Assembly: GCA_012103475.1 (NCBI GenBank)
Contig: WLWS01000006.1
Span: 136,518-200,517 of the forward strand
Direction: 5' to 3'
DNA length: 64,000 nucleotides
Source: Gammaproteobacteria bacterium
GTDB lineage: Bacteria; Pseudomonadota; Gammaproteobacteria; Eutrophobiales; Eutrophobiaceae
Part shown: positions 23,074-40,972 of the stretch, piece after piece
Position numbering within the stretch: position 1 is the stretch's first letter
Layout of the letters: each line of letters starts with the position of its first letter
Notes under the pieces: model-generated
What the model saw: the letters and a program-made list of their open reading frames with translations, nothing else
Database searches by the model: none
What the model was told of the DNA's origin: nothing
Position numbers and translations under genes: made by a program

Positions 23074-23297
23074 GAGATTATAGTGACTCTTCAATCAGGG
23101 CTGTCTCGTAATAACAACAAATTTCTGCAGCGCAGCAAGAGAAGCTATTGGAATGATTGATAATTGCTCACTATTTCACTAGGCTAAAGACAGTTTTTAG
23201 AATATAATTCAAATTCTATTCGGAGAAGACGAATAGTAATTTGTTTTTCAGTTGGAAAATCACAACACCTAAGCGTCATCTTATTCCGGGGGAATGT

Positions 23298-25794
23298 ATG
23301 TACACCAAAAGTAAATCTCTGCAGAATAATCTGCTTAAATCAATTGTTATAGCCTTTCTTGCTCTCATCACCGCGTTACCTATGCAAGTTATGGCGCAGT
23401 CGGTTCTGGAAGAAATTCTGGTCACCGCGACACGAAGAGCCGAAACCGATATTCAGACCACACCGATTTCAGTATCAGCCATAACTGAAGATGCGCTCGA
23501 TGACATGCTTCTGTTTGACCTTGGTGATATCGCAGCGGCTGTCCCGAATCTTGTGCAGGGCAATGCACCGGCTTTTAGTTCTTTCAACCCCAGTCTACGA
23601 GGTGTTGGTAAGGACGGCATTATTTTGTATGTGGAATCTCCTGTTGGTGTAGCGGTCGATGATTTCGTACTAATGTCGACTCAGACTCAAAATTTGGAGC
23701 CTTTCGATATCGAGGCGATTGAAGTATTACGTGGTCCTCAGGGCACACTGTTTGGTAAAAACAGTACCGCCGGCCTGATCCATGTACGTACCAAAAAGCC
23801 AGTAATGGACGAACGCAGTATCGAAGTTCGCGCCAGCTATGCCTCTTTCGATAGTTTAGAGACAAAATTTGCAGGTAATTACGGCACCGATAGATACCCT
23901 TGCTTTTCGAGCTGCCGGTATTTATCAGAAGAACGATGGTTATTACAATGCAGGAAAGACCTCTACCAGTTTTAACCCGTTTACATTCGCGCCGGAAACA
24001 TTCACAGGTGATGGACGTGATCTTGCCGGTGTAGATAAATTTTCTGGTCGTTTTAAAGTTCTGTGGGAACCTAATGAAGACTTTAGTGCTATTGCGACTT
24101 ATGAAATCGTTCGAGACAACAGTGATTCACCAGTAGTTGTGAATGAAAGTGCTACCGCCGGCGGTGCAGTTTTCCCGACACTGGGTCTGACACCTGATGC
24201 CGGTTACGAAGCTGTCGCAGCGGGTGACCCTCTTGATCAGTCAAATCAGTCTCGACGTACTGATTTTTTCAACATGGATTCAGGACATCAGATTGATATT
24301 GACGGGTTTTATCTGAACATGGACTGGACAGTTGGTGATTACACCATTCACTCCGTAACTGGCTACCGTGAGGAAGAAGCTCGTCTGCCGAGTACTTACA
24401 TGGGTGAGGGAAGAGCATCACTGTTTGATGCAACACGAGACGATAATCGCGAGACCTTTCAGCAGGAAATTCGAATCGACTCAAACTACGACGGAGATTT
24501 TAACTTTACGGTCGGTGGTTTCTACCAGGAGGGCGATGTTAAATTCTGCGTAACCCAGATTTTGGGCTTCCTCGATTATTTCGGTGCCGGTTTTGCACCA
24601 AACACTATCCTGGGTGGACTCAGCGATGGCATGGGTAACCCACTTTCACTCGCTACCAATACGCATAACGACAACGCATCAGTATTGTGTAACCGTCAGG
24701 ATTCAAAAGCCTTTGCCCTATTTGCTGATGGAACATTCGATTTCACCGAAAAATTACAAATTGGTTTTGGTGTTAGACAGACTTATGAAAACAAGAAATG
24801 GGCTGGTCGTTCGCAAACCTATTTCCAGTTTCTTAATGGTACAGCTAATGGCGCAGACGAAACCCTGTTCGCATCACTTGGGAATAATCTGGATGCCGCA
24901 GACTTCGGACGTTTCCCTTTTAATGTGGCTACAGCAGAACAGAGCTGGACTGACCCGAGCTTTCGTGTCACAGCTGGTTATGCTGCAACCGATAATCTTT
25001 ATACATGGGCAACAGTATCACGCGGGGTTAAGTCAGGTGCGTTTAATGACCAGACCGGTACTTCGACAGTGGGTGTTCCAGTACCGTTTACTGACCCACG
25101 CACTATTGCTCCAATCGATCCGGAATTTGCGACTAGTTTTGAAATTGGCGTGAAAGCAGATCTGTTTGATAACCGCGTACGCATGAACGTGGTCTATTTC
25201 AATGTGACTTATGATGATGCGCAACGACAATTAAATGCTATCACCGGTAACTTTCAGGAAACCCGATTCTTTAACGCGGCAGAGCTGGACGCTGAGGGTA
25301 TCGAGTTTGAGGGTAGCTGGGTCGTAAATGATAACCTGACAATCAGTGGTAACTGGTCCTGGCAGGATGTGGAATTTGTGTCGTTTGAAGCAGATACCGA
25401 TTTTGACGGTGTAACCGACATTAATCTATCCAACCAGCCTGTTAACCGTTCACCTGAATGGACTGCTTACATCATGGCGAGCTATGAGCACACGCTGGGT
25501 GACATGGGTATGGCCAGACATAACCTCAGCGCTTCATTTGTTGACGACACTGTTTTTACCTACTCAGCTCTCGGACCAGCATTCGATGCCATGGCTGATA
25601 ACCGTACTCTGGTAAACTGGAGTACAACATTAACGGATTCAAGTGAGAAATATTTTATCCGCGCCTTTGGTAAAAACCTGACTGATGAGCGCTATCGCAC
25701 TGGTAATCTGGCTGTAGCCGGACTCTGGACGATGGCTTCTTACGGAGCACCACGTCAGTGGGGTGTTGAAATTGGTGGCAAATTTGATTTCTAA
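23298..25794 (+). pseudogene. TonB-dependent receptor, split by a frameshift near 23880-23890
   Basis: Signal peptide and plug (LEEILVTATRRAE, IEVLRGPQGTLFGKNSTAG) are in frame 0 and the barrel is in frame +1. The homology is continuous across ...LETKFAGNY / APIDTLAFRAAGIYQ... The protein ends in the terminal Phe typical of OMPs. Confidence 0.8.
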
Positions 25795-28671: not shown

Positions 28672-29028
28672 ATGCCCGCTCGCGAAGTGGTCGCCCGGGA
28701 ACTCGCGGAAACTTTCCGAGTTTTGGGTCACGAATTAAGAATACGTATCGTCGAGGAACTGGCACATGGCCACAAAGGCGAACTCGATGTGCATACTCTG
28801 GTGGATATTCTGGATGTGCCTCAGCCTACTGTTTCCCAGCATCTGGGCGTACTTCGGAATGCGAAACTGGTTAAACAACGTCGAGTGGGCCGGCATGTAC
28901 ATTACTCGCTGACGAATCGACAGCTGGCCGGATGGCTTCTCAAGGCTTTGCTTTTTCTGGATGTGCGCTCTCATGATGCTGAAGAGCTGAGTCGAGCCGT
29001 CGAAGATGTTCGACGGGTATGGGGTTAA
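28672..29028 (+). CDS. ArsR/SmtB-family winged-helix transcriptional regulator (cysteine-free)
   Basis: FRVLGHELRIRIVEEL ... VPQPTVSQHLGVLRNAKLV...GRHVHYSL are canonical ArsR HTH motifs. There are no Cys residues, and ELDVHTL sits where ELCVCDL would be. Confidence 0.85.
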   Translation: MPAREVVARELAETFRVLGHELRIRIVEELAHGHKGELDVHTLVDILDVPQPTVSQHLGVLRNAKLVKQRRVGRHVHYSLTNRQLAGWLLKALLFLDVRSHDAEELSRAVEDVRRVWG

Positions 29029-29053
29029 TTACATATTTAATGGGAAGAGAGAT

Positions 29054-30685
29054 ATGACTACGACAACTACCGATATACCTCAGGGAACTATAGATGGACT
29101 CAAACGTCACTGGAAAGACGATATGTTATCGGGCTTTCTGGTATTTCTTATTGCCTTGCCTTTATGTCTTGCCATCTCGCTTGCCTGTGGCTACCCGGCA
29201 ATAGCCGGTGTATTCACGGCGATTATTGGCGGTATTTTGTCCGCTTTTATAAGCAATTCCGAATTGACGATCAAAGGCCCTGCTGCCGGACTTATTGTGG
29301 TCGCTTTGGGCTGTGTCACCGAATTCGGTTTCACAGGAGGACAGGATCTCGCTGCAGATATCCAGGCCTATCGATTGGCTCTGGGAGTCGGAGTAGTCGC
29401 CGGTATTATTCAAATTCTTTTTGGCGTTTTCCGCTCCGGCATACTCGGCGAATTTTTTCCTACATCAGCCGTTCACGGCTTGCTGGCTTCTATCGGTATT
29501 CTGGTCATATCCACGCAAGTACCAATTGTGCTTGGCGTCGCCGCCGGTGGGACACCGCTCGAGCGACTGGCCGCCATTCCAAGCTATTTCATTGAAATGA
29601 ATCCAGTTATAGCCCTGATAGGCGGAATAAGTCTCATCATCATGTTCGGGTTTCCGCTCATTAAGAATCCGCGGCTCAAAATCATACCGGCGCCCATGCT
29701 TGTCCTTTTAGTAGCTGTTCCTCTCGGCATGTATTTCGATATAGGCACTGAACAAATAGTGATGTTCGCAGGACAAGAGGCTTCACTCGGGCCACGCTAC
29801 CTTGTCGATGTGCCTAATAACATGTTCACTGCACTGACCTTTCCGGACTTTTCAGGAGTAATGACAAAAACCGGCATAACCTACATCATCATGTTCTCAT
29901 TAATCGGCAGTGTTGAATCCCTGTTAAGTGCAAAAGCCGTTGATCAGATTGACCCATGGCGTCGTAAAACTAATATGGACAAGGATCTTCTCGCCGTTGG
30001 CATTGGTAACACAGCTGCAGCCTTTGTTGGTGGTCTACCGATGATTTCCGAGATCGTACGAAGTAAAGCCAATATAGATAATGGTGCGCGTACCCGCTTC
30101 GCTAACATGTTTCATGGCTTCTTCCTGCTAGCCTTTGTCGCTCTGGTACCTGCATTAATCGATCGTATTCCCCTCGCAGCGCTTGCAGCGATGCTGGTAT
30201 TTACAGGTTTTCGACTCGCGTCCCCACAAGAGTTCGTCCATATGTACAAAATTGGTCGAGAGCAATTTATCATTTTTGTCTCGACCATCATTGGTGTGCT
30301 TGCAACTGATCTGCTTGTTGGCATCTGTATTGGAATACTGGTGAAAGCAATCATCCACGTCATCAATGGCGCGCCAATCGTTTCCTTGTTCAAGCCCAGT
30401 ATCACAGTTGAAAACGAGAGCGATGAGACGGCGACAATTAAGGTAGATAAATCCGCCCTGTTCAGCACCTGGATCGCGCTGAAAAACCGAATCGGCGGAC
30501 AAAGCGCGAAGCAAGTCATTGTCGACTTGTCTGACACCAAATTCGTGGACCACACTGTGATGGCGAATCTGGAAGCACTCGCCAAAGAATTCAGTGAGAG
30601 TGATCGCGAACTCTTAATCACAGGAATAGAGGAACATAAATCCTTATCTGAACATCCCCTGGCAGCACGAAAGAAATCGTACTGA
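29054..30685 (+). CDS. SulP-family anion transporter with C-terminal STAS domain (candidate bicarbonate transporter)
   Basis: DMLSGFLVFLIALPLCLAISLACGYPAIAGVFTAIIGG and TIKGPAAGLIVV are typical of SulP. The C-terminal section (QVIVDLSDTKFVDHTVMANLEAL) looks like STAS. Start set to ATG 29054. Confidence 0.85.
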   Translation: MTTTTTDIPQGTIDGLKRHWKDDMLSGFLVFLIALPLCLAISLACGYPAIAGVFTAIIGGILSAFISNSELTIKGPAAGLIVVALGCVTEFGFTGGQDLAADIQAYRLALGVGVVAGIIQILFGVFRSGILGEFFPTSAVHGLLASIGILVISTQVPIVLGVAAGGTPLERLAAIPSYFIEMNPVIALIGGISLIIMFGFPLIKNPRLKIIPAPMLVLLVAVPLGMYFDIGTEQIVMFAGQEASLGPRYLVDVPNNMFTALTFPDFSGVMTKTGITYIIMFSLIGSVESLLSAKAVDQIDPWRRKTNMDKDLLAVGIGNTAAAFVGGLPMISEIVRSKANIDNGARTRFANMFHGFFLLAFVALVPALIDRIPLAALAAMLVFTGFRLASPQEFVHMYKIGREQFIIFVSTIIGVLATDLLVGICIGILVKAIIHVINGAPIVSLFKPSITVENESDETATIKVDKSALFSTWIALKNRIGGQSAKQVIVDLSDTKFVDHTVMANLEALAKEFSESDRELLITGIEEHKSLSEHPLAARKKSY

Positions 30686-33552
30686 TGAGCGCAAGCACTC
30701 CATTCTACCGTCTCATCGAGGAGGCGGCCGAACCAGTTTCTCAGTTCTGGCCAATGAAAGGATTTGTCTCGCACAATCCAATACAGGGCCTCGAACATCT
30801 TCCTTTTGACGAAGCATTCCGGCAGGCAAAAGATCTGTTTGGCGCGGAAGGATATTTACCAGCAGAGGAATATCGGGCTTTGTTGCAGACTGGTCGTATA
30901 ACACAGGAAAGCGTGAATAGCGCGATGGCTCGTGTTGGTCCAGAGAATGATGAGTCTGTATCTTTATCATCGCGAACAATTTCAGCAAAGGAAGTACTGA
31001 GGCTTCATTTGCTGCATGGGATTGATGTGCTTGAGCCGGCACTACTTGAATGGCAGCTAACAAGTGGAGGTGCTTTAGAGAAGCCCTTTGCAGCTGCTAC
31101 TACAGAGTTGGACTTAGCCGGATTGTGGCAACAAGTGTTATCTATATTGAAGCTTGCCGACGGCTCTACGAACAAAAAGGGACCGATATCTGCGCAGGCA
31201 GATGAGGCCAGGCTCGATTTACCATTTCGCCGAACCCTCAGTGACTGGCTTGACGAGCTTACCAACTCCTCACTAGTCGCAAGCATCGATCAGCATCTGA
31301 TCAAATGGACATCCTCCTTTGTCGATGAAGGCATGGCCAGCTGGTCTATGCCAGGCAGGCCTTCCGGTTTTTATCTTGCGTGGCGTGAACTCGCCCAGCA
31401 CGATGCGAGTGCCCGACTCCTGGGAATAAAGAACTTTTCATCAAAGGTGGCCGCTTTGCCAGAGGATCCGGAAGCTGGCATCCAGCAATCGCTACAGGCA
31501 CTTCAGATTCCTGAAGCACGTTGGCCGGACTATTTAACCAGAGTGCTCGCCCAGTTGCCAGGCTGGACAGGATTGATTCGCTGGCGTGGGTTGAACCCGG
31601 ATGATCCGATTCAGAAAGCAGCGCCGATCGATGTTGTGCAATATCTTGCCGTTCGCATGTTTTATGAACGGGAGCTTGTTCAATTACAGGCCTCTCGGGA
31701 ATGGCGTATCGAAGGTAATTTACCAACGCTTACAAAATATCTGCAAGAACATGGCAGGGCGCCGGAAGCCACAGTTAGTGCCAACAAAGCGGCGGTATGC
31801 AGCGATGCCTGGCGATTGTTTAATCTCATGCAGCTTTTGAAATCTGAAGCAAGCTCTTTTACTGATATTAGATATGAGCAGGCAAAAGTTATGCTTGGCT
31901 GGCTTGATGAATTTCCTGTTGAGCAACATTTACCCGTTTGGCTTGAGGCATATGAAGATTCCTATCGGAATGAATTGTTGTCAAAAATTCACGCACACAG
32001 GGGAAACGTAACCGAAGCTAAGGAGCGACCACTCGCCCAGGCGGCATTTTGTATTGATGTTCGCTCAGAGCCCTTCCGCCGTCATTTTGAAGCAACAGGG
32101 GCAATAGAAACAATTGGTTATGCGGGCTTTTTCGGTATCCCGATGAGTCACCGCGGGTACGACACAGAAGAGTCCTTTCCACTTTGCCCGGTATTGCTGT
32201 CACCCTCAAATGCACTCTATGAATTACCTCGGGAAGGTCAGCAACAGGCACTCTCAAAATACGCCTCGGGTACACGCTGGCTACAACTAGGGGAGCAACT
32301 ATTTCACGATATAAAGCACAGTCCGATTGCGTCGTTTTTATTGGTAGATGTGCTTGGACTGTTTTTTAGCGTTGCGCTAATTGGCAAAACGCTCTTTCGG
32401 CGTTCTTACCATATCCTGCTTAGTGCAATGAAAAAATGGTTTGTTCAATCTGTCGAGACTGAGATTCAGGCCGGTGAAGAGACAGGTGATAAACCACGAG
32501 TTAGCGGCGTACCGGTTGAGCTTACTCGAGGTTATAGTGTTGCGCAGCAGGCTGATTTCGTCGAAGGTGGACTGCGAGTTACCGGGCTGACGGAAAATCT
32601 TGGCCGATTTGTCGTGCTCTGTGGTCACGGCAGTACAACTGACAATAACCCGTATTCTGCCGCCCTCGACTGCGGTGCATGTGGTGGGCGTCACGGCGAT
32701 CCGAATGCACGTACTTTTGCTATAATGGCGAATAATCCTTTGGTTCGAGCGGAGATCAAGAGGCGTGGTCTTGATATCCCGGAAGACACCTGGTTCTTAC
32801 CAGCAAAGCACAATACCACTGCCGATACGATCGAATTTTACGATGTCGTAGATGTTCCCCAAAGTCATCGAGAAGATCTGGAGAAGCTTCGCCAGTTATT
32901 TATTGAAGGTGGTGAGCAGCAGGCTCTTGACCGTTGCAAACGCATTCCGGGAACTCCGAGTAACATGACCGCGAAACAGGCTTTCGCACATGTTGAGTCA
33001 AGGAGCTTTGACTGGGCGACATCCCGACCTGAATGGGGCCTTTCGGGTAACGCCGCCTTTATCATTGGAAGACGGATGATGACCAAGGGTCTTGATTTAG
33101 GAGGACGTTGTTTCTTACATTCTTACAACGCACTTTCTGATCCGGAAGGCGCCTTGCTGGAAAAAATAATGACGGCACCGCTTGTAGTGGGCGAGTGGAT
33201 CAATATGCAGTACTACACCTCTGCAACTGATCCCTGGAAATACGGCAGTGGCAGCAAAGTTATTCATAATGTTGTGGGAGGAGTGGGGGTTATGTATGGC
33301 GCGCAAAGCGATCTGGCTACAGGCTTACCGCTGCAGACTGTGAATGATGGCGCCAGCCATTTTCACGAGCCCGTACGTTTACTGACTTTGATTGAAGCTG
33401 ATCACGCGATTGTTGGCGAAATCATCGCCAGACATGACATACTGCAACAGTTTTTTCATAACGGCTGGTTGAATCTTGTCGTTATCGATCCGAATACATT
33501 TGAGTTCCGTCGGTACAACACAGACGCAAGCTGGGAGTTGCTTGAGCTATGA
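30685..33552 (+). CDS. dabA: DabA (DUF2309) - carbonic-anhydrase-like subunit of DIC-accumulating (DAB/Mps) complexes
   Basis: 955 aa. N-terminus FWPMKGFVSHNPIQGLEHLPFDEA. CIDVRSE motif (C456, D458). GHGS (H648) and LDCGACGG (C663), with the same H-to-C spacing of 15 as the published DabA Zn site. The ATG overlaps the sulP stop. Confidence 0.85.
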   Translation: MSASTPFYRLIEEAAEPVSQFWPMKGFVSHNPIQGLEHLPFDEAFRQAKDLFGAEGYLPAEEYRALLQTGRITQESVNSAMARVGPENDESVSLSSRTISAKEVLRLHLLHGIDVLEPALLEWQLTSGGALEKPFAAATTELDLAGLWQQVLSILKLADGSTNKKGPISAQADEARLDLPFRRTLSDWLDELTNSSLVASIDQHLIKWTSSFVDEGMASWSMPGRPSGFYLAWRELAQHDASARLLGIKNFSSKVAALPEDPEAGIQQSLQALQIPEARWPDYLTRVLAQLPGWTGLIRWRGLNPDDPIQKAAPIDVVQYLAVRMFYERELVQLQASREWRIEGNLPTLTKYLQEHGRAPEATVSANKAAVCSDAWRLFNLMQLLKSEASSFTDIRYEQAKVMLGWLDEFPVEQHLPVWLEAYEDSYRNELLSKIHAHRGNVTEAKERPLAQAAFCIDVRSEPFRRHFEATGAIETIGYAGFFGIPMSHRGYDTEESFPLCPVLLSPSNALYELPREGQQQALSKYASGTRWLQLGEQLFHDIKHSPIASFLLVDVLGLFFSVALIGKTLFRRSYHILLSAMKKWFVQSVETEIQAGEETGDKPRVSGVPVELTRGYSVAQQADFVEGGLRVTGLTENLGRFVVLCGHGSTTDNNPYSAALDCGACGGRHGDPNARTFAIMANNPLVRAEIKRRGLDIPEDTWFLPAKHNTTADTIEFYDVVDVPQSHREDLEKLRQLFIEGGEQQALDRCKRIPGTPSNMTAKQAFAHVESRSFDWATSRPEWGLSGNAAFIIGRRMMTKGLDLGGRCFLHSYNALSDPEGALLEKIMTAPLVVGEWINMQYYTSATDPWKYGSGSKVIHNVVGGVGVMYGAQSDLATGLPLQTVNDGASHFHEPVRLLTLIEADHAIVGEIIARHDILQQFFHNGWLNLVVIDPNTFEFRRYNTDASWELLEL

Positions 33553-34019
33553 AAGTTTTTATTGCAATCGCGCTCTTTGCATTGTGGCTGGTGTTGTCTG
33601 CATCCTTTAACCCGGCCCATGTAGTGCTGGGAGCAATTGTTGCTTTAATCGTTGCCTGGATAAACCCGATAGGCACTCCCTATACGCGACGCTTTTTATG
33701 GCTGCGAGCGCTGGGCTATGCGCCCTGGCTATTCGGGCGAGTTGTTAAAAGCGGCTTACACGTCAGTCGACTTATTCTTTATCCTGCTCTGCCAATCAAG
33801 CCCGAGCTTATACAACACAAAACAAAGCTTCGCAGCGAAGGAGAGCTTGTTGTACTAGGCAATTCAATCACCCTTACGCCTGGTACGATCACCGTCGAAG
33901 TAGCGCCTGGCGAACTTATCGTACATGCCATTGATGCATCAGCGCAGCAGGACCTTATCAGTGGAGTGCTTGATGAGAAGGTCAGTCGTTTGTTCTCAGC
34001 ATGGGAGGGAGATCAGTGA
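33549..34019 (+). CDS. mrpE: Mrp/Mnh antiporter subunit E-like (MbhA-like)
   Basis: NSITLTPGTITVEV signature. Two N-terminal TM helices. ATGA overlap with the dabA stop. Confidence 0.8.
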   Translation: MKVFIAIALFALWLVLSASFNPAHVVLGAIVALIVAWINPIGTPYTRRFLWLRALGYAPWLFGRVVKSGLHVSRLILYPALPIKPELIQHKTKLRSEGELVVLGNSITLTPGTITVEVAPGELIVHAIDASAQQDLISGVLDEKVSRLFSAWEGDQ

Positions 34020-34288
34020 GTTCATTTTTTGTTTTTGTGCTCGTTACCCTGACGATGCTGATGCTTGTTTATTTATATCGTGTTATTCGCGGACCCAGTG
34101 TCTTTGACCGTGTGCTTGGATTAAACGGTATATCCACCAAGGCAATTGTTTTACTTGTGTTGCTTGGCACGATGTTTGAACGCGTCGATATGTTCGTGGA
34201 TATTTCAACCGGATACGCACTATTGAATCTCGTTGGTGCACTGGCCATCGCGAAATTCCTTGAAGAAAGGGGGACCTCAGAGAAATGA
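34016..34288 (+). CDS. mrpF: Mrp/Mnh subunit F-like (MbhB-like)
   Basis: YRVIRGPSVFDRVLGLN signature. GTG 34016 gives a GTGA overlap with the mrpE stop; an alternative ATG lies at 34001. Confidence 0.75.
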   Translation: MSSFFVFVLVTLTMLMLVYLYRVIRGPSVFDRVLGLNGISTKAIVLLVLLGTMFERVDMFVDISTGYALLNLVGALAIAKFLEERGTSEK

Positions 34289-34584
34289 CCGCCTTAGCAG
34301 TTTTTCTAATAGTCGTAGGACTATTTTTTCTTGTTGTTGGCTCGATTGGTATGATGCGCTTGCCGGATGTCTTTTCCCGTGCACACGCACTTTCGCTTAC
34401 TGATTCACTCGGGGCCGTTTTCGTTCTGGCAGGGCTTGCGGTCTATGAAGGTTTTACCCTTAATTTTCTTCGGATCATTGTTGTGCTACTGCTCGTCTAC
34501 CTGATGAATCCTGCAATTTCACACGCGACATTAAGGGCAGCATACCGTTCAGGTCTTCGGCCTTCTGCAAAGGAAGAAAAATGA
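34285..34584 (+). CDS. mrpG: Mrp/Mnh subunit G-like (MbhC-like)
   Basis: VGSIGMMRLPDVFSRAHALSLTDSLG signature; ATGA overlap with the upstream gene. Confidence 0.8.
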   Translation: MTALAVFLIVVGLFFLVVGSIGMMRLPDVFSRAHALSLTDSLGAVFVLAGLAVYEGFTLNFLRIIVVLLLVYLMNPAISHATLRAAYRSGLRPSAKEEK

Positions 34585-35105
34585 CAATTGAAATTCCACT
34601 TCTTATTTTACTGGTGATGACAGCTGCTGGTGCCATGCTGGTGAAGGATCTTATTTCTTCAGTGTTCATTCTTGGTTCCTATAGCTTCGCACTGTCACTT
34701 GTCTGGGCACTCCTGGGCGCAGTTGATGTGGCTTTTGTAGAGGCCGTTGTCGGGGCAGGACTGGCAACGGTCTTCTTCCTGTTAACCTTATTCCGGACCA
34801 CAGAAAAAGATGACGTTATACGTCGTCCGCCGGTACCCTGGGCGGCAATAATTGGCCTGCCCCTGTTAGGTTTACTGCTTCTTTATGGAGCGGGTGATCT
34901 ACCCGCATTTGGCGATGTAAGTTCTCCGGCAAGCACGCATATTTCTCCCTACTACCTCGAGAACAGTGTTGCGCAAACCCGAACTCCGAACGTGGTGACC
35001 GCTGTGCTCATGGATTATCGTTCTTTCGATACCTTTATCGAGACCATCGTGATATTTACCGCAGGGATTGCCTGCGCACTCATTCTCAGGAAGGGCGGCG
35101 AATGA
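34581..35105 (+). CDS. MbhD/MbhE-like protein (DUF4040 + MnhB N-terminal-type segment; equivalent to the MrpA C-terminal domain)
   Basis: AVDVAFVEAVVGAGLATVFFLL (DUF4040-like) and NVVTAVLMDYRSFDTFIETIVIF (MnhB-type) motifs. Confidence 0.7.
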   Translation: MTIEIPLLILLVMTAAGAMLVKDLISSVFILGSYSFALSLVWALLGAVDVAFVEAVVGAGLATVFFLLTLFRTTEKDDVIRRPPVPWAAIIGLPLLGLLLLYGAGDLPAFGDVSSPASTHISPYYLENSVAQTRTPNVVTAVLMDYRSFDTFIETIVIFTAGIACALILRKGGE

Positions 35106-35563
35106 TTCAGCCACATGACAGCGCTATCGTGCGTTCACTTGGTCATGTTGTCATTCCGATAGCTCAACTCTTCGGGGCTTATGTACTGGTGTTTGGTCAA
35201 CACGGACCGGGGGGCGGCTTTGTCGGTGGTGTGGTCATTGCGGCCAGCATGATCATGGCCATTTTAATCTTCGGCGTTGACTCTGCTGATAGTACGCTCG
35301 CCCGAAAAATACTGCATGGAGACGGGCTGGGTCTGCTGCTCTTTGGCGGTGTTGGCGGACTCTGCCTGATCGGAGGAGGTCAATTTCTGAATTACAGCTT
35401 CTTGCAAATCCCTGGTCTCGACGAAGCGTCTCAACATTATGCCGGAATACTATTGACCCAGATTGGGGTCGCCATGGATGTCGCAGTTACCGGCGTGTCA
35501 ATTGCCGTCAGTCTGTCATTTGAAGAAGATGAAATTTCTCAAGACGAGGTGAAAGATGCTTGA
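35102..35563 (+). CDS. mrpB: Mrp/Mnh subunit B-like (MbhF-like)
   Basis: GQHGPGGGFVGGVVIAAS signature of the MnhB domain. Confidence 0.75.
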   Translation: MIQPHDSAIVRSLGHVVIPIAQLFGAYVLVFGQHGPGGGFVGGVVIAASMIMAILIFGVDSADSTLARKILHGDGLGLLLFGGVGGLCLIGGGQFLNYSFLQIPGLDEASQHYAGILLTQIGVAMDVAVTGVSIAVSLSFEEDEISQDEVKDA

Positions 35564-35933
35564 GCTATTGCAAACACTGATACAACGACCGAACTTTGTT
35601 GTTTTCGTCATCTTGTTTCTTTGGGGCATCTATATCATGGCGGCCCATCCAAACTTCGTTAAAAAACTCATCGGTCTGTATATTGTGCAGATCAGCGCGA
35701 TTTTTTTTCTTGTCGCCTTCAGTGCCAAACAAGGTGCGACGGTACCGGTCATAATGGAAGGGGCGGCAGCGGTGGAACCACTTATCTATGCAAATCCGCT
35801 TCCACATGTGCTGACTGTAACGGCTATTGTGGTCCAGGTTGCAACTCTTGGCGTCTCGCTGGCACTCGTGGCGGGGATTTATCGGAAGTTTGGCACTCTC
35901 GATGAAGATAAAGTGATGGAACAGCTAAAATGA
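35556..35933 (+). CDS. mrpC: Mrp/Mnh subunit C-like (NuoK-like, MbhG-like)
   Basis: 125 aa with three TM helices and a NuoK/MnhC-like pattern; position between mrpB and mrpD. Confidence 0.7.
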   Translation: MLELLQTLIQRPNFVVFVILFLWGIYIMAAHPNFVKKLIGLYIVQISAIFFLVAFSAKQGATVPVIMEGAAAVEPLIYANPLPHVLTVTAIVVQVATLGVSLALVAGIYRKFGTLDEDKVMEQLK

Positions 35934-37396
35934 ACTCTCATCTGCCCATCCTGATTTTTCTCGTGCCCTTTTTTGTGGGTGTATCGATGCCTATTCTCAC
36001 GGCAAAGCGACCTTCGCTATGCCCGGATATCACTTTGGCTGCGGTTATTGTTATGTTTTTGCTGGCAATAGCCAATCTTTATATGGTTCAGACAGAAGGG
36101 CCAATCGAGTATGCACTCGGTGGCTGGACTGCACCGATTGGTATCGCGTGGCTTAATGATTCGATTGCAGCAATTGTGGTTTTGACAGTCACTGTGGTGG
36201 CATTACTGACGCTGATCTATGGCCGGGTTATTGTTAGCGCCGATCTGGCAAAAAGTGTTCCTTACTATACGCTTATCCTTATCATGATTTCAGGCCTGGT
36301 TGGCCTCGTGTTTGCCGCAGACCTGTTTAATGTCTTTGTGTTTCTGGAAGTTGCCGCCTTATCTGGTTATGCACTGGTTGGTGCCGGGGGTGGGAAAGCG
36401 CAGGTTTATGCTTTTCGCTATCTACTGCTGGGTTCTTTTGGCGCAACACTTTATCTGCTGGGCCTTGGGCATCTCTACGTAGTCACCGGTACGCTCAATA
36501 TGGCGGATCTGGCGCTACGACTTCCTGAGTTAATGACATCTACAGCAGTAGTCGGCGGTCTTATCTATATTTTTCTTGGTCTTTCGATCAAGATGGCATT
36601 AATACCACTGCACAGCTGGTTGCCAGATGCGTATACCAACGCGCCCTCCGCAGTGACACCATTACTGGCCTCCACCGTCACCAAGGTCGCATTGGTAGCA
36701 TGGGTTCGCATTGAGTATTCGCTTATTGCGCCAAATGTTGAAGTCAGTCATGTGCCTGTGCTGGTGCTGTTAGAGGAACTAGGCGTTATCGCAGCACTCA
36801 TAGGCGGTGCGCTCGCTCTAATCCAGACCGATCTCAAGCGTATGTTTGCTTATGGCGGGATCAGTCATATTGGTTTGATTCTGATCGGTGTGAGTCTCGG
36901 CAATGACACGGGATTCGTAGGCGGCATGTTTTACCTGATCAATGACGCTGTCATGCAAGCAGCACTTTTCATGATTGCCGGTGCTATTCTTTATTACCAC
37001 AAGGCCCGTACACTTGATGATATACGCGGTGTGGGTCTGCACACTTCACCCTGGCTTACAGGGGCCCTGATAGTGGTCGCAGTAGCAATGGTAGGGTTGC
37101 CACCTACTGGCGGTTTTTTCGGCAAATGGAATATCATACTTGGTGCCCTGGAGGCAGAACACTACTTTGCCGTATTTGCGGTGATCGCATCAACACTGCT
37201 GACCTTCGGTTATTTCCTTAAAGTATTCGCCGCCTGGTTCCACCAGACTGAATTTGTCGAAGCAAAATCAATCAAGATCTCAAGTGGCTTGAGAGTCAGT
37301 TTGGGTGCTATATCAATCTTAATGATTGCGCTTGGGCTTATGAGTGATTCAGTTGTGCAAATTTTACTTGAATCAGTAAACAATGGAGGCATTTGA
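35930..37396 (+). CDS. mrpD: antiporter-like subunit, MrpD/NuoN/MbhH-type (Proton_antipo_M)
   Basis: YALGGWTAPIGIAWLNDS, HSWLPDAY and MFAYGGISHIG are typical of MrpD-class subunits. Confidence 0.8.
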   Translation: MNSHLPILIFLVPFFVGVSMPILTAKRPSLCPDITLAAVIVMFLLAIANLYMVQTEGPIEYALGGWTAPIGIAWLNDSIAAIVVLTVTVVALLTLIYGRVIVSADLAKSVPYYTLILIMISGLVGLVFAADLFNVFVFLEVAALSGYALVGAGGGKAQVYAFRYLLLGSFGATLYLLGLGHLYVVTGTLNMADLALRLPELMTSTAVVGGLIYIFLGLSIKMALIPLHSWLPDAYTNAPSAVTPLLASTVTKVALVAWVRIEYSLIAPNVEVSHVPVLVLLEELGVIAALIGGALALIQTDLKRMFAYGGISHIGLILIGVSLGNDTGFVGGMFYLINDAVMQAALFMIAGAILYYHKARTLDDIRGVGLHTSPWLTGALIVVAVAMVGLPPTGGFFGKWNIILGALEAEHYFAVFAVIASTLLTFGYFLKVFAAWFHQTEFVEAKSIKISSGLRVSLGAISILMIALGLMSDSVVQILLESVNNGGI

Positions 37397-37403
37397 GAAG
37401 ACC

Positions 37404-39491
37404 ATGTCGATTTACACACTGATTCCTTTTCTACCGCTGGCAGCCTCGCTGATCCTGACACTATTTGGCGAGCAGCTGCAGGGCAAAGGGCAGCGACTTG
37501 TGATTCCGGCAATTGCACTTTCATTTCTGCTTTCCATTATTGCCTTCCTCGAAGTTATTGCAAACGGCCCGATTAATGTACAACTCTATCAATTTCTGAA
37601 TGTAGGCAAGCTGGTTGTTGATATGGGCTTTTTTCTCGATCAGCTCACCGTACTTTTGCTGCTGCTGGTAACCGGGGTCAGCACTGTCGTGCAGGTCTAT
37701 GCCTCCCGTTACATGGTAGGCGATCCACGGCACAGCCGTTTTTTTGCGCTGACTGCAATGTTTACAGCTGCAATGACACTACTGGTAATGAGCAGCAACT
37801 TAATGATGACCTTCATTTTTTGGGAACTCATGGGACTGTGCTCGTATCTGCTGATATCACATTACGCCGAGCGCCCCAGTGCCGCACGTGCCGCAACAAA
37901 GGTATTTCTGGTTAATTCCGTCGCCGATGCCGGACTCTTAGTCGGTGTCGTTCTGACTTTTCTGACTTTTGGCACGCTCGATATTCAGGAGATTCTGGTA
38001 ATAGCAAAATCAGGTGCTGATGTTTCCGATCTGCCCATAACACTGTTAACGCTATGTCTATTTTGCGGTGCAGTCGGCAAATCTGCGCAAATGCCTGCGC
38101 ACGTCTGGTTACCTTTTGCGATGGAAGCGCCGACACCAGTATCCGCGCTGATTCATGCCGCAACAATGGTGAATGCCGGGCCTTTTTTACTCGTGCGCCT
38201 GAGCCCGGTTATTGTGCTTTCGCCTACTGCGATGACGGTTATCACTATCGTTGGCGCCATGACGGCACTGTTTGCCGCAGTCGTGTCCTTAACGCAAACC
38301 GATATTAAGCGAACACTTGCCTATTCCACCATAAGTCAGCTCGGCTTTATGGTTATGTTATGTGGTGTGGGCGCATTTGTGGCCGCTATTTTTCACCTTA
38401 TCGCACATGGCTTCTTCAAGGCCTTCCTGTTTCTGTCCACCGGCAACGCGCTTACTGCCACCCATCGTCATTTAGAGCATGAAGAGGAAACGCCGGCACT
38501 TGCCAGGAACGGACTCTTTGTTGGCGCCCTAATCATGTCGATTGTACCGGTGCTGGTGTTTTTCTCAGGTTCCTATCGTCACCTGTGGCTTTCACAGAGT
38601 TCTTCCACCGCGGAAATAGCCTTATGGATTGTTGGCCTTGCTACGATCTTTTTTACTGCGATGTATCTCTTCAAAAGTGTGACGACAATCTTCCGCCGTG
38701 GTCCCACGGGAGCTAAAGACAGTGAGCCCCTTGTTTCTCCAGACCTGTTCTCTGCACGTCACGTAATTGGCGTTGCTGTCATAGCAGCAATCATGATTGC
38801 ACTGTTAATTACAGTATGGCGCTGGTTTGCGGGTTTCCTCTCGCCAGCAGTAGGTGGTGCGCAGAGTCAGCTTGCATCGGAATTTTCTGTCTGGATACTG
38901 TTGCCCTTGCTTGTCGCCGTGGCGGGCTGGATAGTCGCTTATGTCCGATTCAGACGTCCGCGCTTGCAGCAGACCTCGGTTTTAAAGAAACGACTTTATG
39001 TCTTCTTCCTGAATAAAGGGTATTTCGATGACATTTATGAGGTATTTCTGGTCCGCCCGACTTTAAAACTTGCTGACTGGACCTGGAGAAAGATTGATCA
39101 GGGTATTATCGATAAGGTCATAATTTCACTCGGTACTATAAGTACAGCGCTTGCCCATCGTCTCGGTTACCTCGATGCAGCTATTGATAAGGGAGTCATG
39201 TCGGTTGGTACTGGCAGTACTGCAATTGCCCATCGCCTCGGCTATCTCGATGCTATTGTTGATAATCGTGTTACTTCGGTTGGCTCGGTCAGCATCGGTT
39301 TAGCCCGTTGGCTGGGCAGATTCGTCGATACAGAGGGCATTTCTAAAACGGTTGATGGATTAGGACGGAGCGTGGATGCGTCCGGACACGCGGCTAGACG
39401 CTATGAACCACACACACTACAACACAACCTGTTGGTGGTAGTATTGTGGCTGGTTGCAGCTCTGGGTTTTTTCTACTGGATCGGGGGATAA
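37404..39491 (+). CDS. antiporter-like subunit, NuoL/NdhF/MrpA-N-type (DabB candidate) with expanded C-terminal lateral-helix region
   Basis: FIFWELMGLCSYLLI, VGKSAQMPAHVWLPFAMEAPTPVSALIHAATMV and LAYSTISQLGFM are NuoL/NdhF hallmarks. The C-terminus has four tandem 25-26-aa units and a final TM anchor. An alternative ATG at 37383 overlaps the upstream gene. Confidence 0.8.
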   Translation: MSIYTLIPFLPLAASLILTLFGEQLQGKGQRLVIPAIALSFLLSIIAFLEVIANGPINVQLYQFLNVGKLVVDMGFFLDQLTVLLLLLVTGVSTVVQVYASRYMVGDPRHSRFFALTAMFTAAMTLLVMSSNLMMTFIFWELMGLCSYLLISHYAERPSAARAATKVFLVNSVADAGLLVGVVLTFLTFGTLDIQEILVIAKSGADVSDLPITLLTLCLFCGAVGKSAQMPAHVWLPFAMEAPTPVSALIHAATMVNAGPFLLVRLSPVIVLSPTAMTVITIVGAMTALFAAVVSLTQTDIKRTLAYSTISQLGFMVMLCGVGAFVAAIFHLIAHGFFKAFLFLSTGNALTATHRHLEHEEETPALARNGLFVGALIMSIVPVLVFFSGSYRHLWLSQSSSTAEIALWIVGLATIFFTAMYLFKSVTTIFRRGPTGAKDSEPLVSPDLFSARHVIGVAVIAAIMIALLITVWRWFAGFLSPAVGGAQSQLASEFSVWILLPLLVAVAGWIVAYVRFRRPRLQQTSVLKKRLYVFFLNKGYFDDIYEVFLVRPTLKLADWTWRKIDQGIIDKVIISLGTISTALAHRLGYLDAAIDKGVMSVGTGSTAIAHRLGYLDAIVDNRVTSVGSVSIGLARWLGRFVDTEGISKTVDGLGRSVDASGHAARRYEPHTLQHNLLVVVLWLVAALGFFYWIGG
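39096..39404 (+). repeat. four tandem 75-78-nt (25-26-aa) repeat units inside the NuoL-like gene
   Basis: Units start at D572, D598, D623 and D649: DQGIIDKVIISLGTISTALAHRLGYL / DAAIDKGVMSVGTGSTAIAHRLGYL / DAIVDNRVTSVGSVSIGLARWLGRFV / DTEGISKTVDGLGRSVDASGHAARRY. Units 1 and 2 are also very similar at the DNA level (gcccatcgtctcggttacctcgatgc vs gcccatcgcctcggctatctcgatgc). Confidence 0.85.
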
Positions 39492-39499
39492 ACAACGTT

Positions 39500-40972
39500 A
39501 TGGATTCACTATTTACAGACCACCTGCTGAGCTTGATGATCGCCATGCCATTTATCGGCATGGTTATTCTCGCATTTTTAAGTGACCGAAAATGGGTACT
39601 CACGACGACACTTGTTATCACACTGATCAACACGGCGCTCGCTTTCTTTCTCTGGAGTCAATTTGACCTCACCGAAACCGGCATGCAATTCGTTGAACGC
39701 CATCAATGGATGCCGACCTTCGGCATAGAATATGCCGTCGGTGTAGACGGCATCAGTCTGCTACTGGTACTGCTGACCACCTTCCTGCCGCCTCTTTGTG
39801 TGCTTGGATGCTGGGATTCAATCACCACCCGCTTGAAAGCCTTCATGATGTTGATCCTGCTCGTCGAAGGCGCCATGCTGGTTGTGTTTACTGCCCTGGA
39901 TGCTTTTCTATTCTTCATGCTCTGGGAAGTCACCATGGTGCCCATGTATTTCATGATTGTGCTGTGGGGCGGGCCGAATCGCGTCGCAGCCGGTTTGAAG
40001 TATGTCCTGTACAGCCTTACGGGAAGTTTACTTCTGCTCGTCGGTATATTGGGGCTTTCACTGCAGGCGGGTACTTTCGACATCATACAACTGGCAGATT
40101 TCAGTTATTCGGAGAAATCGGAATTCTGGATATTCCTCGCCCTGTTTCTGGGCTTTGCGATCAAACTTCCGATGCTGCCTTTTCACACCTGGCTTCCGGA
40201 TGCTCACTCCGAAGCGCCGACCGCGGGTAGTGTGCTGTTGGCAGGGGTACTCCTGAAAATGGGTGGCTATGGACTCATTCGTTTCTGTCTGCCCATCTTT
40301 CCAGAAATGGCGCATAGTTTTGCGCCGGCTGTGCTGTGGTTATCAGTTGCCGGTATTTTGTACGGCGGTTATATGGCGCTGGCACAAGAAGATCTGAAGA
40401 GACTGGTTGCCTATTCTTCCGTCTCGCATATGGGTTTTGTCACTCTGGGAATTTTCTCCTTCAATAACGAAGGTATCGAAGGCGCCATTTTGCAAATGAT
40501 GACCCATGGCCTGACTACCGGTGCAATGTTCCTGATAGTTGGTCAGCTATATGACCGCACACACAGTCGCAACATAGCTGACTATGGTGGTCTTCAGCAA
40601 CGCATGCCCAGATTCGTGGCCATTCTCAGCCTGTTTGCGGTCGCGTCATTCGGTTTACCTACAACATCTAATTTTATCGGCGAGTTCCTTATTCTTGTGG
40701 GTGTCTCCTACGAAAACTTTATCTTCGTCGTGCTGGCGATGGGCGGCATTGTCCTGGGTGCGGCCTACATGCTGTGGATGTTGCAGCGTGTTGCCTTCGG
40801 TCAGGCACGCACCGAAGCTGCTAGACAATTAACAGATCTGAATTTTCGGGAAATGCTGACAATACTTCCACTGGCTGTTGCTGTGGTAGGTATTGGCGTC
40901 TATCCAGGGCCATTTCTTGAGTCTATGGATGCCAGTGTGACTTACGTGGTTGAACGAATGGCTCAGCATTGA
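39500..40972 (+). CDS. antiporter-like subunit, NuoM/NdhD-type
   Basis: FGIEYAVGVDGISLLLVLLTTFL and FHTWLPDAHSEAPTAGSVLLAGVLLKMGGYGLIRF are NuoM hallmarks. Start set to ATG 39500, 8 nt after the upstream stop. Confidence 0.85.
   Translation: MDSLFTDHLLSLMIAMPFIGMVILAFLSDRKWVLTTTLVITLINTALAFFLWSQFDLTETGMQFVERHQWMPTFGIEYAVGVDGISLLLVLLTTFLPPLCVLGCWDSITTRLKAFMMLILLVEGAMLVVFTALDAFLFFMLWEVTMVPMYFMIVLWGGPNRVAAGLKYVLYSLTGSLLLLVGILGLSLQAGTFDIIQLADFSYSEKSEFWIFLALFLGFAIKLPMLPFHTWLPDAHSEAPTAGSVLLAGVLLKMGGYGLIRFCLPIFPEMAHSFAPAVLWLSVAGILYGGYMALAQEDLKRLVAYSSVSHMGFVTLGIFSFNNEGIEGAILQMMTHGLTTGAMFLIVGQLYDRTHSRNIADYGGLQQRMPRFVAILSLFAVASFGLPTTSNFIGEFLILVGVSYENFIFVVLAMGGIVLGAAYMLWMLQRVAFGQARTEAARQLTDLNFREMLTILPLAVAVVGIGVYPGPFLESMDASVTYVVERMAQH

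Follow-up and report, generated by a model that had tools for sequence, protein, structure and literature searches.

A DabA-family protein with a conserved zinc site in an Mrp-linked operon of a marine gammaproteobacterium

The closest described relatives of the protein considered here are the DabA subunits of the DAB1 and DAB2 complexes. In the structure of Halothiobacillus neapolitanus DabA2 (HnDabA2; PDB 9rd0, 9rd8 and 9rd9), zinc is held by Cys351, His524 and Cys539 together with a water molecule, and Asp353 and Arg355 form a dyad that holds this water and contributes no fourth ligand; alanine mutants of all five residues are defective (PMC13144422), and alanine mutants of the ligand set did not rescue E. 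coli free of carbonic anhydrase (CA) (10.1101/476713). The zinc site of Thermocrinis albus DabA1 is alike, with C449, H694 and C709 and the dyad D451-R453, and CsoSCA is named as the closest fold of DabA (10.64898/2026.05.01.722082). The discoverers of DAB found DabA also in genomes without RuBisCO (10.1101/476713), and in Staphylococcus aureus MpsAB supplies bicarbonate for growth in air, standing in for CA (PMC6689103, PMC8567241). Here we describe the dabA gene of a 64,000-nucleotide stretch of contig WLWS01000006.1 (the window, to which positions refer) from a gammaproteobacterium (GCA_012103475.1). Its product is probably a genuine DabA, kept by selection and with an intact active site, which would hydrate CO2 in an ion-driven reaction and so supply bicarbonate in a heterotroph that lacks α- and β-CA.

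The dabA gene and its zinc site

PF10070 (DabA, formerly DUF2309/YbcC/COG3002) covers the whole dabA product: residues 11-929 match profile positions 1-747 of 747 (E 1.3e-262, 874 bits, with the cut-off at 25). The Pfam scan gave no match of DabA to PF00484, the β-CA family, and no model of the NCBIfam scan matched it. The gene is the sole PF10070 gene of the whole assembly, which makes moot the earlier remark that it is not a decayed paralogue. Its ATG shares bases with the stop codon of sulP (TGATG) and its stop codon with the start of mrpE (ATGA); both junctions, read directly from the sequence, are translationally coupled. The gene and the elements of its zinc site are:

30685-33552, + strand: dabA, 955 codons in an uninterrupted frame (PF10070 and 9rd0_A matches)
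32050-32064, + strand: C456-I-D458-V-R460, predicted first zinc Cys and Asp-Arg dyad placing the zinc-bound water (aligned to C351/D353/R355 of HnDabA2; roles from PMC13144422)
32626-32628, + strand: H648, predicted zinc-ligand His (aligned to H524 of HnDabA2)
32644-32688, + strand: NNPYSAALDCGACGG (residues 654-668), predicted loop connecting the membrane-subunit interface with the active site, counterpart of the DabA1 motif 700-NNPYESALDCGACGG-714; it holds the zinc ligand C663 (32671-32673), N654 (N530 of DabA2) and the conserved C666

A phmmer search against all PDB sequences returned one relative, HnDabA2 (9rd0_A, E 4.9e-115). It pairs FCIDVRSE with FCIDVRSE, GHGS with GHGS and LDCGACGG with LDCGACAG, placing C456, D458, R460, H648 and C663 column for column on C351, D353, R355, H524 and C539. 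A second, independent BLOSUM62 local alignment gave the same mapping of the five residues, with 42% identity over the 496 columns of the catalytic core. By both methods the residues singled out in the original prediction are homologous to the DabA2 zinc site. Its coordinates and residue numbers (CIDVRSE at 32050-32070, H648 at 32626-32628, C663 at 32671-32673) were all reproduced on re-translation, and the ligand set that it gave, C351, D353, H524 and C539, agrees with the text of 10.1101/476713. The His-to-Cys spacing of 15 residues (H-x14-C), which it took to be equal to that of HnDabA2, is indeed shared by the two proteins and by T. albus DabA1 (H694/C709). What has to be amended is its count of four zinc-ligand positions: the residues are present, but the solved structures show three ligands and an Asp-Arg dyad, and D458 was called a ligand on the basis of a 2018-19 homology model that the 2026 cryo-EM structures have superseded. 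The pattern C.D.R...(100-300)...H-x14-C occurred in 20 of 20,000 shuffles of the query; we regard a chance origin of the site as excluded, the homology being far stronger evidence than the shuffles.

Conservation of the five residues is the rule across the family. An exhaustive HMMER search yielded 4,272 DabA-family clusters, from which we aligned the query with the 149 best representatives at the 50%-identity level (33-61% identical to the query; n = 150), and we defined a closer clade of 34 members (54-87% identical). All five zinc-site residues are present in 148 of the 150 family representatives, both exceptions being fragments (Cys, Asp and Arg of the first motif in 150/150, His in 149/150, the second Cys in 148/150), and in every one of the 34 clade members. 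The H-x14-C spacing is found in 147/148 representatives, and no "decayed" DabA was seen among them. Retention of the zinc site is therefore the family default and hardly discriminating, so that in itself it carries little weight; as regards the active site, this DabA adds one more ordinary case to a known family. C666 (32680-32682; C542 in DabA2), which is the second Cys of CGAC, is kept in 147/150 representatives; the passages on zinc ligands in the two structure papers do not name it among the ligands and give it no role.

The selection analysis is more informative than the ligands. Compared with an 87%-identical homologue, the ratio of nonsynonymous to synonymous substitution rates (dN/dS) is 0.087 over the whole gene, falling to 0.057 in residues 441-700 and to 0.034 in 701-955, and dabA is under strong purifying selection. 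The earlier judgement that the protein is probably catalytically competent thus finds support, although the four near-invariant residues on which it was built are a weak basis for it: competence appears likely because the DAB motifs and the tunnel and coupling residues described below, which the 2026 papers probed with mutants, are intact, because dN/dS is low, and because the operon is kept amid different flanking genes.

The predicted structure is compatible with this picture in its local features. A first AlphaFold2 (AF2) model, built from 34 close homologues, had a predicted local distance difference test score (pLDDT) below 50 in the conserved loops (481-508, 653-671 and 777-791); adding 55 distant homologues raised the mean from 70 to 88.5, and the resulting second model (75 diverse sequences) has a predicted template modelling score of 0.90. 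In it, C456 directly follows the strand 451-455 and H648 lies at the end of the strand 642-649. As in canonical β-CAs (PF00484, e.g. E. coli Can) and CsoSCA, there is a Cys2-His zinc site with an Asp-Arg dyad, with CxDxR after a β-strand and the His at a strand end, whereas the spacing (H-x14-C against H-x2-C), the Leu in place of the catalytic Gln/His and the predicted buried, gated site set the protein apart from them. An overlay on the β-CA active site had been proposed as a check. Foldseek searches of the PDB with the full-length query gave no significant match for either model (best E 0.5 for the confident one, with β-CAs at E ~4), in a library that extends to 2026-04-08 and seemingly does not include 9rd0, and with a query whose length swamps a β-CA of ~200 residues. 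Alignment of the DabA core to 22 β-CAs with hhalign gave at best 22 columns at 20% probability; this weak match puts H648 on the zinc His of a canonical β-CA, the only catalytic residue so placed. The description "β-CA-like" therefore comes from the published DabA structures by way of strong sequence homology, not from a fold search on this protein.

Tunnel, gate and coupling positions

Around the zinc site, the query retains the three DAB-specific motifs. Defined as GI(A/G)GFFG, NNPYxxALDCGACGG and DW(XXX)RPEWGL (10.64898/2026.05.01.722082), they read GYAGFFG, NNPYSAALDCGACGG and DWATSRPEWGL here. The further elements are:

32116-32136, + strand: GYAGFFG (478-484), predicted lid/CO2-channel motif, corresponding to GI(A/G)GFFG of DabA1
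32185-32187, + strand: C501, lid Cys, 17 residues past the lid motif, an offset equal to that of C494 of T. albus DabA1
32323-32442, + strand: predicted hydrophobic helical hairpin 547-586, putative counterpart of the membrane-inserted finger/elbow of DabA (AF2 model)
33010-33042, + strand: DWATSRPEWGL (776-786), second predicted DabB-to-active-site motif, corresponding to DW(XXX)RPEWGL of the DAB1 preprint
33118-33180, + strand: predicted CO2-tunnel residues H812, L824, I828, A831 and P832, corresponding to H684, V696, I700, A703 and P704 of DabA2

In the BLOSUM62 alignment Y479, A480 and F482 of the lid motif fall on F375, A376 and F378 of DabA2, with A480 and F482 the same in all 34 members of the clade. 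C501, whose DabA1 counterpart C494 is described as the water-channel gate (10.64898/2026.05.01.722082), is invariant in the clade and Cys in 131 of the 150 representatives, whereas HnDabA2 has Asn. Of the residues named for the DabA2 CO2 tunnel (PMC13144422), the counterparts A831 and P832 do not vary within the clade. R781, W784 and L786 correspond to R653, W656 and L658 of DabA2 and are likewise invariant in all 34 members; by this mapping R781 and W784 would form the product-tunnel gate, with L786 at the place of the canonical β-CA Gln/His. Beyond the ligands, then, C501, A480, F482, H812, I828, A831, P832, R781, W784, L786 and N654 are all kept, most of them invariant in the clade, and the tunnel residues A376, F378, H684, I700, A703 and P704, the gate R653/W656 and N530 of HnDabA2 are identical in the query. 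The two proteins differ in length (955 against 827 residues, the query having a longer N-terminal domain and a hairpin longer by 13 residues), in the substitutions E444 to D555, F375 to Y479 and V696 to L824, and in reading NNPYSA where DabA2 has NNPHRA.

The positions that would couple the active site to a membrane subunit are less well kept. The second AF2 model predicts helices 547-570 and 572-586 in the hairpin, where D555 (32347-32349) sits at E444 of HnDabA2 in both alignments. Glu444 of DabA2 is essential in vivo, E444A and E444Q both being dead. Position 555 is Asp in 32 of the 34 clade members and Asn in two; in the family sample 19/20 representatives from the group of the query have Asp there, and the DabA1/DabA2 group has Glu. 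An acidic hairpin residue that completes a half-channel has been proposed for DAB2, and the DAB1 authors dispute it (10.64898/2026.05.01.722082). T. albus DabA1 shares with the query the zinc site and dyad, the three motifs, the Tyr of NNPY and the lid Cys, but two residues of its strictly conserved NNPYESALDCGACGG, E704 and S705, are S658 and A659 in the query. E704 and D708 of the DabA1 NNPYES...D motif hydrogen-bond to DabB (10.64898/2026.05.01.722082); the position of E704 is occupied by Phe, Ser, Tyr or Ala across the clade, and that of D708 (662 here) by Asp in 28, His in five and Gln in one of its 34 members. As judged from these alignments, the changed coupling positions fit a different membrane partner.

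A FastTree phylogeny of 155 catalytic cores, provisional in that it comes from FastTree alone, resolves three groups: a 44-row clade with His at the L786 position; a group of 20 rows that includes the query (support 94), with NNPY[AFYS]... and Asp at position 555; and a group of 91 rows (support 96) with Glu at 555, which holds the DabA1-type (NNPYESALDCGACGG) rows and HnDabA2. Provisionally, the query would thus fall outside both the DabA1 and the DabA2 clades. We considered Asp555 as a strict marker of Mrp-linked operons and rejected it: of two proteins with Asp, one (P0129) is Mrp-linked but the gene of the other (P0128) directly precedes a NuoL-like gene. A protein with Glu (P0130) is encoded with P-II and a single PF00361 gene.

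The first of these groups, a clade with good support, has features of its own. In its members (44/150 representatives) a canonical β-CA Gln/His-type residue is back at the position of L786 (L658 in DabA2), where both structure papers describe a Leu that is strictly conserved among DabA2 homologues and broadly among DabA orthologues; 33 of them also have Leu for W784, and their motif reads NNPH..A[YH]DCGAC. One member (L007:2234-5200), which differs from the query in having His at L786, lies in a SulP-DabA-NuoL-like-PF00361-DUF2490 operon from which Mrp genes are absent.

The operon and its candidate membrane partner

The dabA gene lies third in a 12-gene operon:

28672-40972, + strand: operon encoding an ArsR-family regulator, SulP, DabA, MrpE, F, G, MbhD/E-like, MnhB, MnhC, MrpD-like, NuoL-like and NuoM-like proteins (Pfam and NCBIfam scans)
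37383-39491, + strand: NuoL-like subunit of 702 residues, candidate docking partner of DabA (9rd0_B, E 2.5e-42)

The same gene order is found in three other contigs (L002, L003 and L004) with different flanking genes, and the operon recurs in part in a 45%-identical relative. HnDabA2 has a single adjacent DabB, whereas none of the three PF00361 genes of this operon adjoins dabA. Only the NuoL-like protein among the three matches DabB2 of the solved structure, at E 2.5e-42 against ~1e-90 for NuoL/Nad5 chains; neither the MrpD-like nor the NuoM-like protein had DabB2 among its matches of E 1e-20 or below. Of the channel residues of E. coli NuoL, the NuoL-like protein retains E144, K229, H254, K305, H334, H338 and K342, the first of which is replaced by Ile in DabB2; for K399/D400, the Lys-Asp pair of transmembrane helix 12, it reads R/H, in a region where the alignment is uncertain.

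The nearest described gene arrangement is YbcC/COG3002 "clade C" of the 2017 COGNAT study (PMC5700660), in which ybcC stands upstream of a nuoL homologue together with SulP (COG0659) and NuoM (COG1008) genes. No Mrp E/F/G/B/C/D genes are listed for that arrangement and the paper predicted no function for it. The locus of the His-clade member described above (L007) has the clade C arrangement with DUF2490 at its end, as in the window, and from gene content the window operon looks like this arrangement with an MrpE-F-G-A'-B-C-D block inserted. We found no description of an Mrp-linked form of DabA in the open-access literature. Compared with DabA1 loci, the operon lacks DabC and P-II neighbours (cf. 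L008). S. aureus MpsAB(C), compared by description, resembles it in joining a DabA-family protein to a complex-I-like membrane partner in a CA-less non-autotroph, but has only two or three genes, with no Mrp E/F/G/B/C/D, SulP or NuoM-like subunit among their products (PMC6689103, PMC8567241).

Several side observations concern the family and the window. Three more distant relatives of the query have a gene of the MpsC family (PF10057) immediately before dabA (L005:1360-1758, L006:683-1054 and L033:8403-8804), a point of likeness to the Mps system; at that place the window operon has the ArsR-family regulator and SulP, and no MpsC. One of these loci (L006:1212-5357) encodes a 1063-residue DabA (P0123, 50% identical) with the start of a second DabA gene ~330 bp downstream, so some organisms do carry tandem DabA paralogues. 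Many members of the DabA family reach 1250-1467 residues (P0136, P0155, P0169, P0174, P0222, P0239 and others); their DabA match begins at ~620-850, as might be expected of fusions to a DabB-like membrane part at the N terminus. Elsewhere in the window, at 23241-25794, two overlapping open reading frames (ORFs) in different frames share the parts of a TonB-dependent receptor, the first with the Plug domain (23241-23975) and the second with the β-barrel (23869-25794), a pattern that a frameshift or a sequencing error could explain.

Host genome and the role of DabA

In the host assembly, of 17 contigs, 4.19 Mb and 87% completeness, we found no RuBisCO large subunit (PF00016), no β-CA (PF00484) and no α-CA (PF00194). 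Two genomes of the same genus carry a β-CA, and at the corresponding places, on intact contigs, the host has the flanking genes adjoining and the CA block missing:

C5:142818-143171 and C17:154439-155953 (contigs of the host genome, outside the window): empty β-CA sites, from comparison of the flanks with same-genus genomes

A tblastn search with the β-CA of one of these genomes (G016) detected no remnant anywhere in the host genome, and the β-CA ORF of the other (G039) had no match in it. From these comparisons, the absence of β-CA from the host is probably real. The only other candidate of the CA superfamily that we found is a YrdA-type γ-CA-like hexapeptide-repeat protein at C17:1112599-1113111, 54% identical to E. 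coli YrdA. Because of it, we rejected the notion that DabA is the only CA-like gene of the host. E. coli YrdA is not known to substitute for Can, and a contribution of the homologue to CO2 hydration is doubtful. Across the 61 genomes of the taxonomic family, β-CA is present in 49 and DabA in three, and dabA is absent from all three same-genus genomes.

By analogy with DAB1 and DAB2, zinc would be bound by C456, H648 and C663 together with water or hydroxide, with the D458-R460 dyad positioning the zinc water, and DabA would hydrate cytoplasmic CO2 to bicarbonate one way, only under ion flow through a complex-I-type membrane subunit. Contacts with this subunit are predicted for the hairpin 547-586, which includes D555, and for the loops NNPY...CGACGG and DW...RPEWGL; the likeliest candidate for the subunit is the NuoL-like protein of the same operon, inside an Mrp-type module. 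Most likely, the system captures CO2 from respiration or the environment and keeps it as bicarbonate for the carboxylation steps of biosynthesis, a role that MpsAB has in S. aureus. We favor bicarbonate supply over the feeding of carboxysomes because the genome shows neither RuBisCO nor α- or β-CA; unlike that of HnDabA2, the host offers no RuBisCO or carboxysome context. The original prediction of a functional dissolved inorganic carbon system is accordingly best narrowed to bicarbonate supply for a heterotroph, since a CO2-concentrating mechanism is not to be expected where no RuBisCO was found.

Several observations weigh against this assignment. Ligand conservation is necessary for activity and no proof of it, and independent evidence for a β-CA fold failed, as Foldseek returned nothing significant and hhalign the 22-column match at 20% alone. 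In place of the essential Glu444 of DabA2 the query has Asp and 2/34 clade members have Asn, and the DabB-contact residues of DAB1, E704 and D708, are not conserved in the clade, so coupling may differ from that of the solved complexes. There is no classical DabB: the NuoL-like protein is much nearer to true NuoL, and its gene follows dabA only after 3.8 kb and seven Mrp genes. With an assembly that is 87% complete and a γ-CA-like YrdA in it, DabA is not proven to be the sole CO2-hydrating enzyme. Finally, the link between presence of DabA and absence of β-CA in the taxonomic family is weak and suggestive only, two of the three DabA carriers lacking β-CA compared with 10 of the 58 non-carriers (one-sided Fisher test, ~0.10).

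The operon also lends itself to a reading in terms of ion or pH homeostasis or energy conservation: SulP would import bicarbonate, and DabA would dehydrate it or cycle CO2 and bicarbonate, driving Na+ or H+ through the Mrp, NuoL and NuoM subunits. This would explain why SulP is translationally coupled directly upstream of dabA and why a full Mrp-type antiporter set is present; it recalls the 2017 COGNAT proposal that YbcC/DUF2309 drives ion export via NuoL homologues, made with the SulP and NuoM neighborhood noted (PMC5700660), and the argument that MpsAB is Na+-linked. We consider it unlikely. L786 and the gated tunnels are kept, and the structure papers, in the passages that discuss them, read them as blocking bicarbonate binding and the reverse reaction. 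SulP scores far under the BicA cut-off (121 against 880 bits), and the lack of α- and β-CA creates a need for bicarbonate supply.

Very little probability attaches to the idea that dabA is intact yet silent or irrelevant, a recently acquired and unexpressed island. Its patchy distribution (none of the three same-genus genomes, 3/61 in the taxonomic family) and a GC content slightly above the window mean (49.6% against 46.6%) would suit such an origin, but dN/dS values of 0.03-0.09 and a 12-gene operon kept across divergent genomes point to long-term selection on function, and the usual alternative, β-CA, is missing from the genome. That the zinc site acts on a related small molecule such as carbonyl sulfide (COS) or carbon disulfide (CS2) deserves hardly any credence: some enzymes of the β-CA fold with the same Cys2-His site do act on COS or CS2, the ligand set alone leaves the substrate unfixed, and several second-shell and interface positions of the clade are unlike those of DabA1 and DabA2, but the DabA2 CO2-tunnel and product-gate residues are all kept or conservatively replaced and the Pfam and NCBIfam scans showed no sulfur-metabolism genes in the operon.

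Ion-driven bicarbonate supply by an intact DabA thus remains our preferred reading, and it can be extended tentatively. DabA might be the catalytic head of a new multi-subunit vectorial CA, in which NuoL- and NuoM-like subunits and a full Mrp-type module replace the single DabB; Asp555, the loss of the NNPYES Glu and the variable D662 could be adaptations to a different, possibly Na+-linked partner, and the system could have taken over the housekeeping role of β-CA in a marine heterotroph that lost that enzyme. This extension is speculative, and we would sooner bet against it than for it.

An intact, strongly selected DabA in a marine heterotroph without RuBisCO or α- or β-CA, on a branch apart from both solved types, is of moderate interest. 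The two 2026 structure papers disagree, in their discussions of it, on what the hairpin and its acidic residue do, and a branch with differing coupling positions offers a natural comparison for the way in which ion flow is linked to unidirectional hydration of CO2. The branch is common in marine metagenomes, and it may bear on the retention of inorganic carbon by marine heterotrophs.

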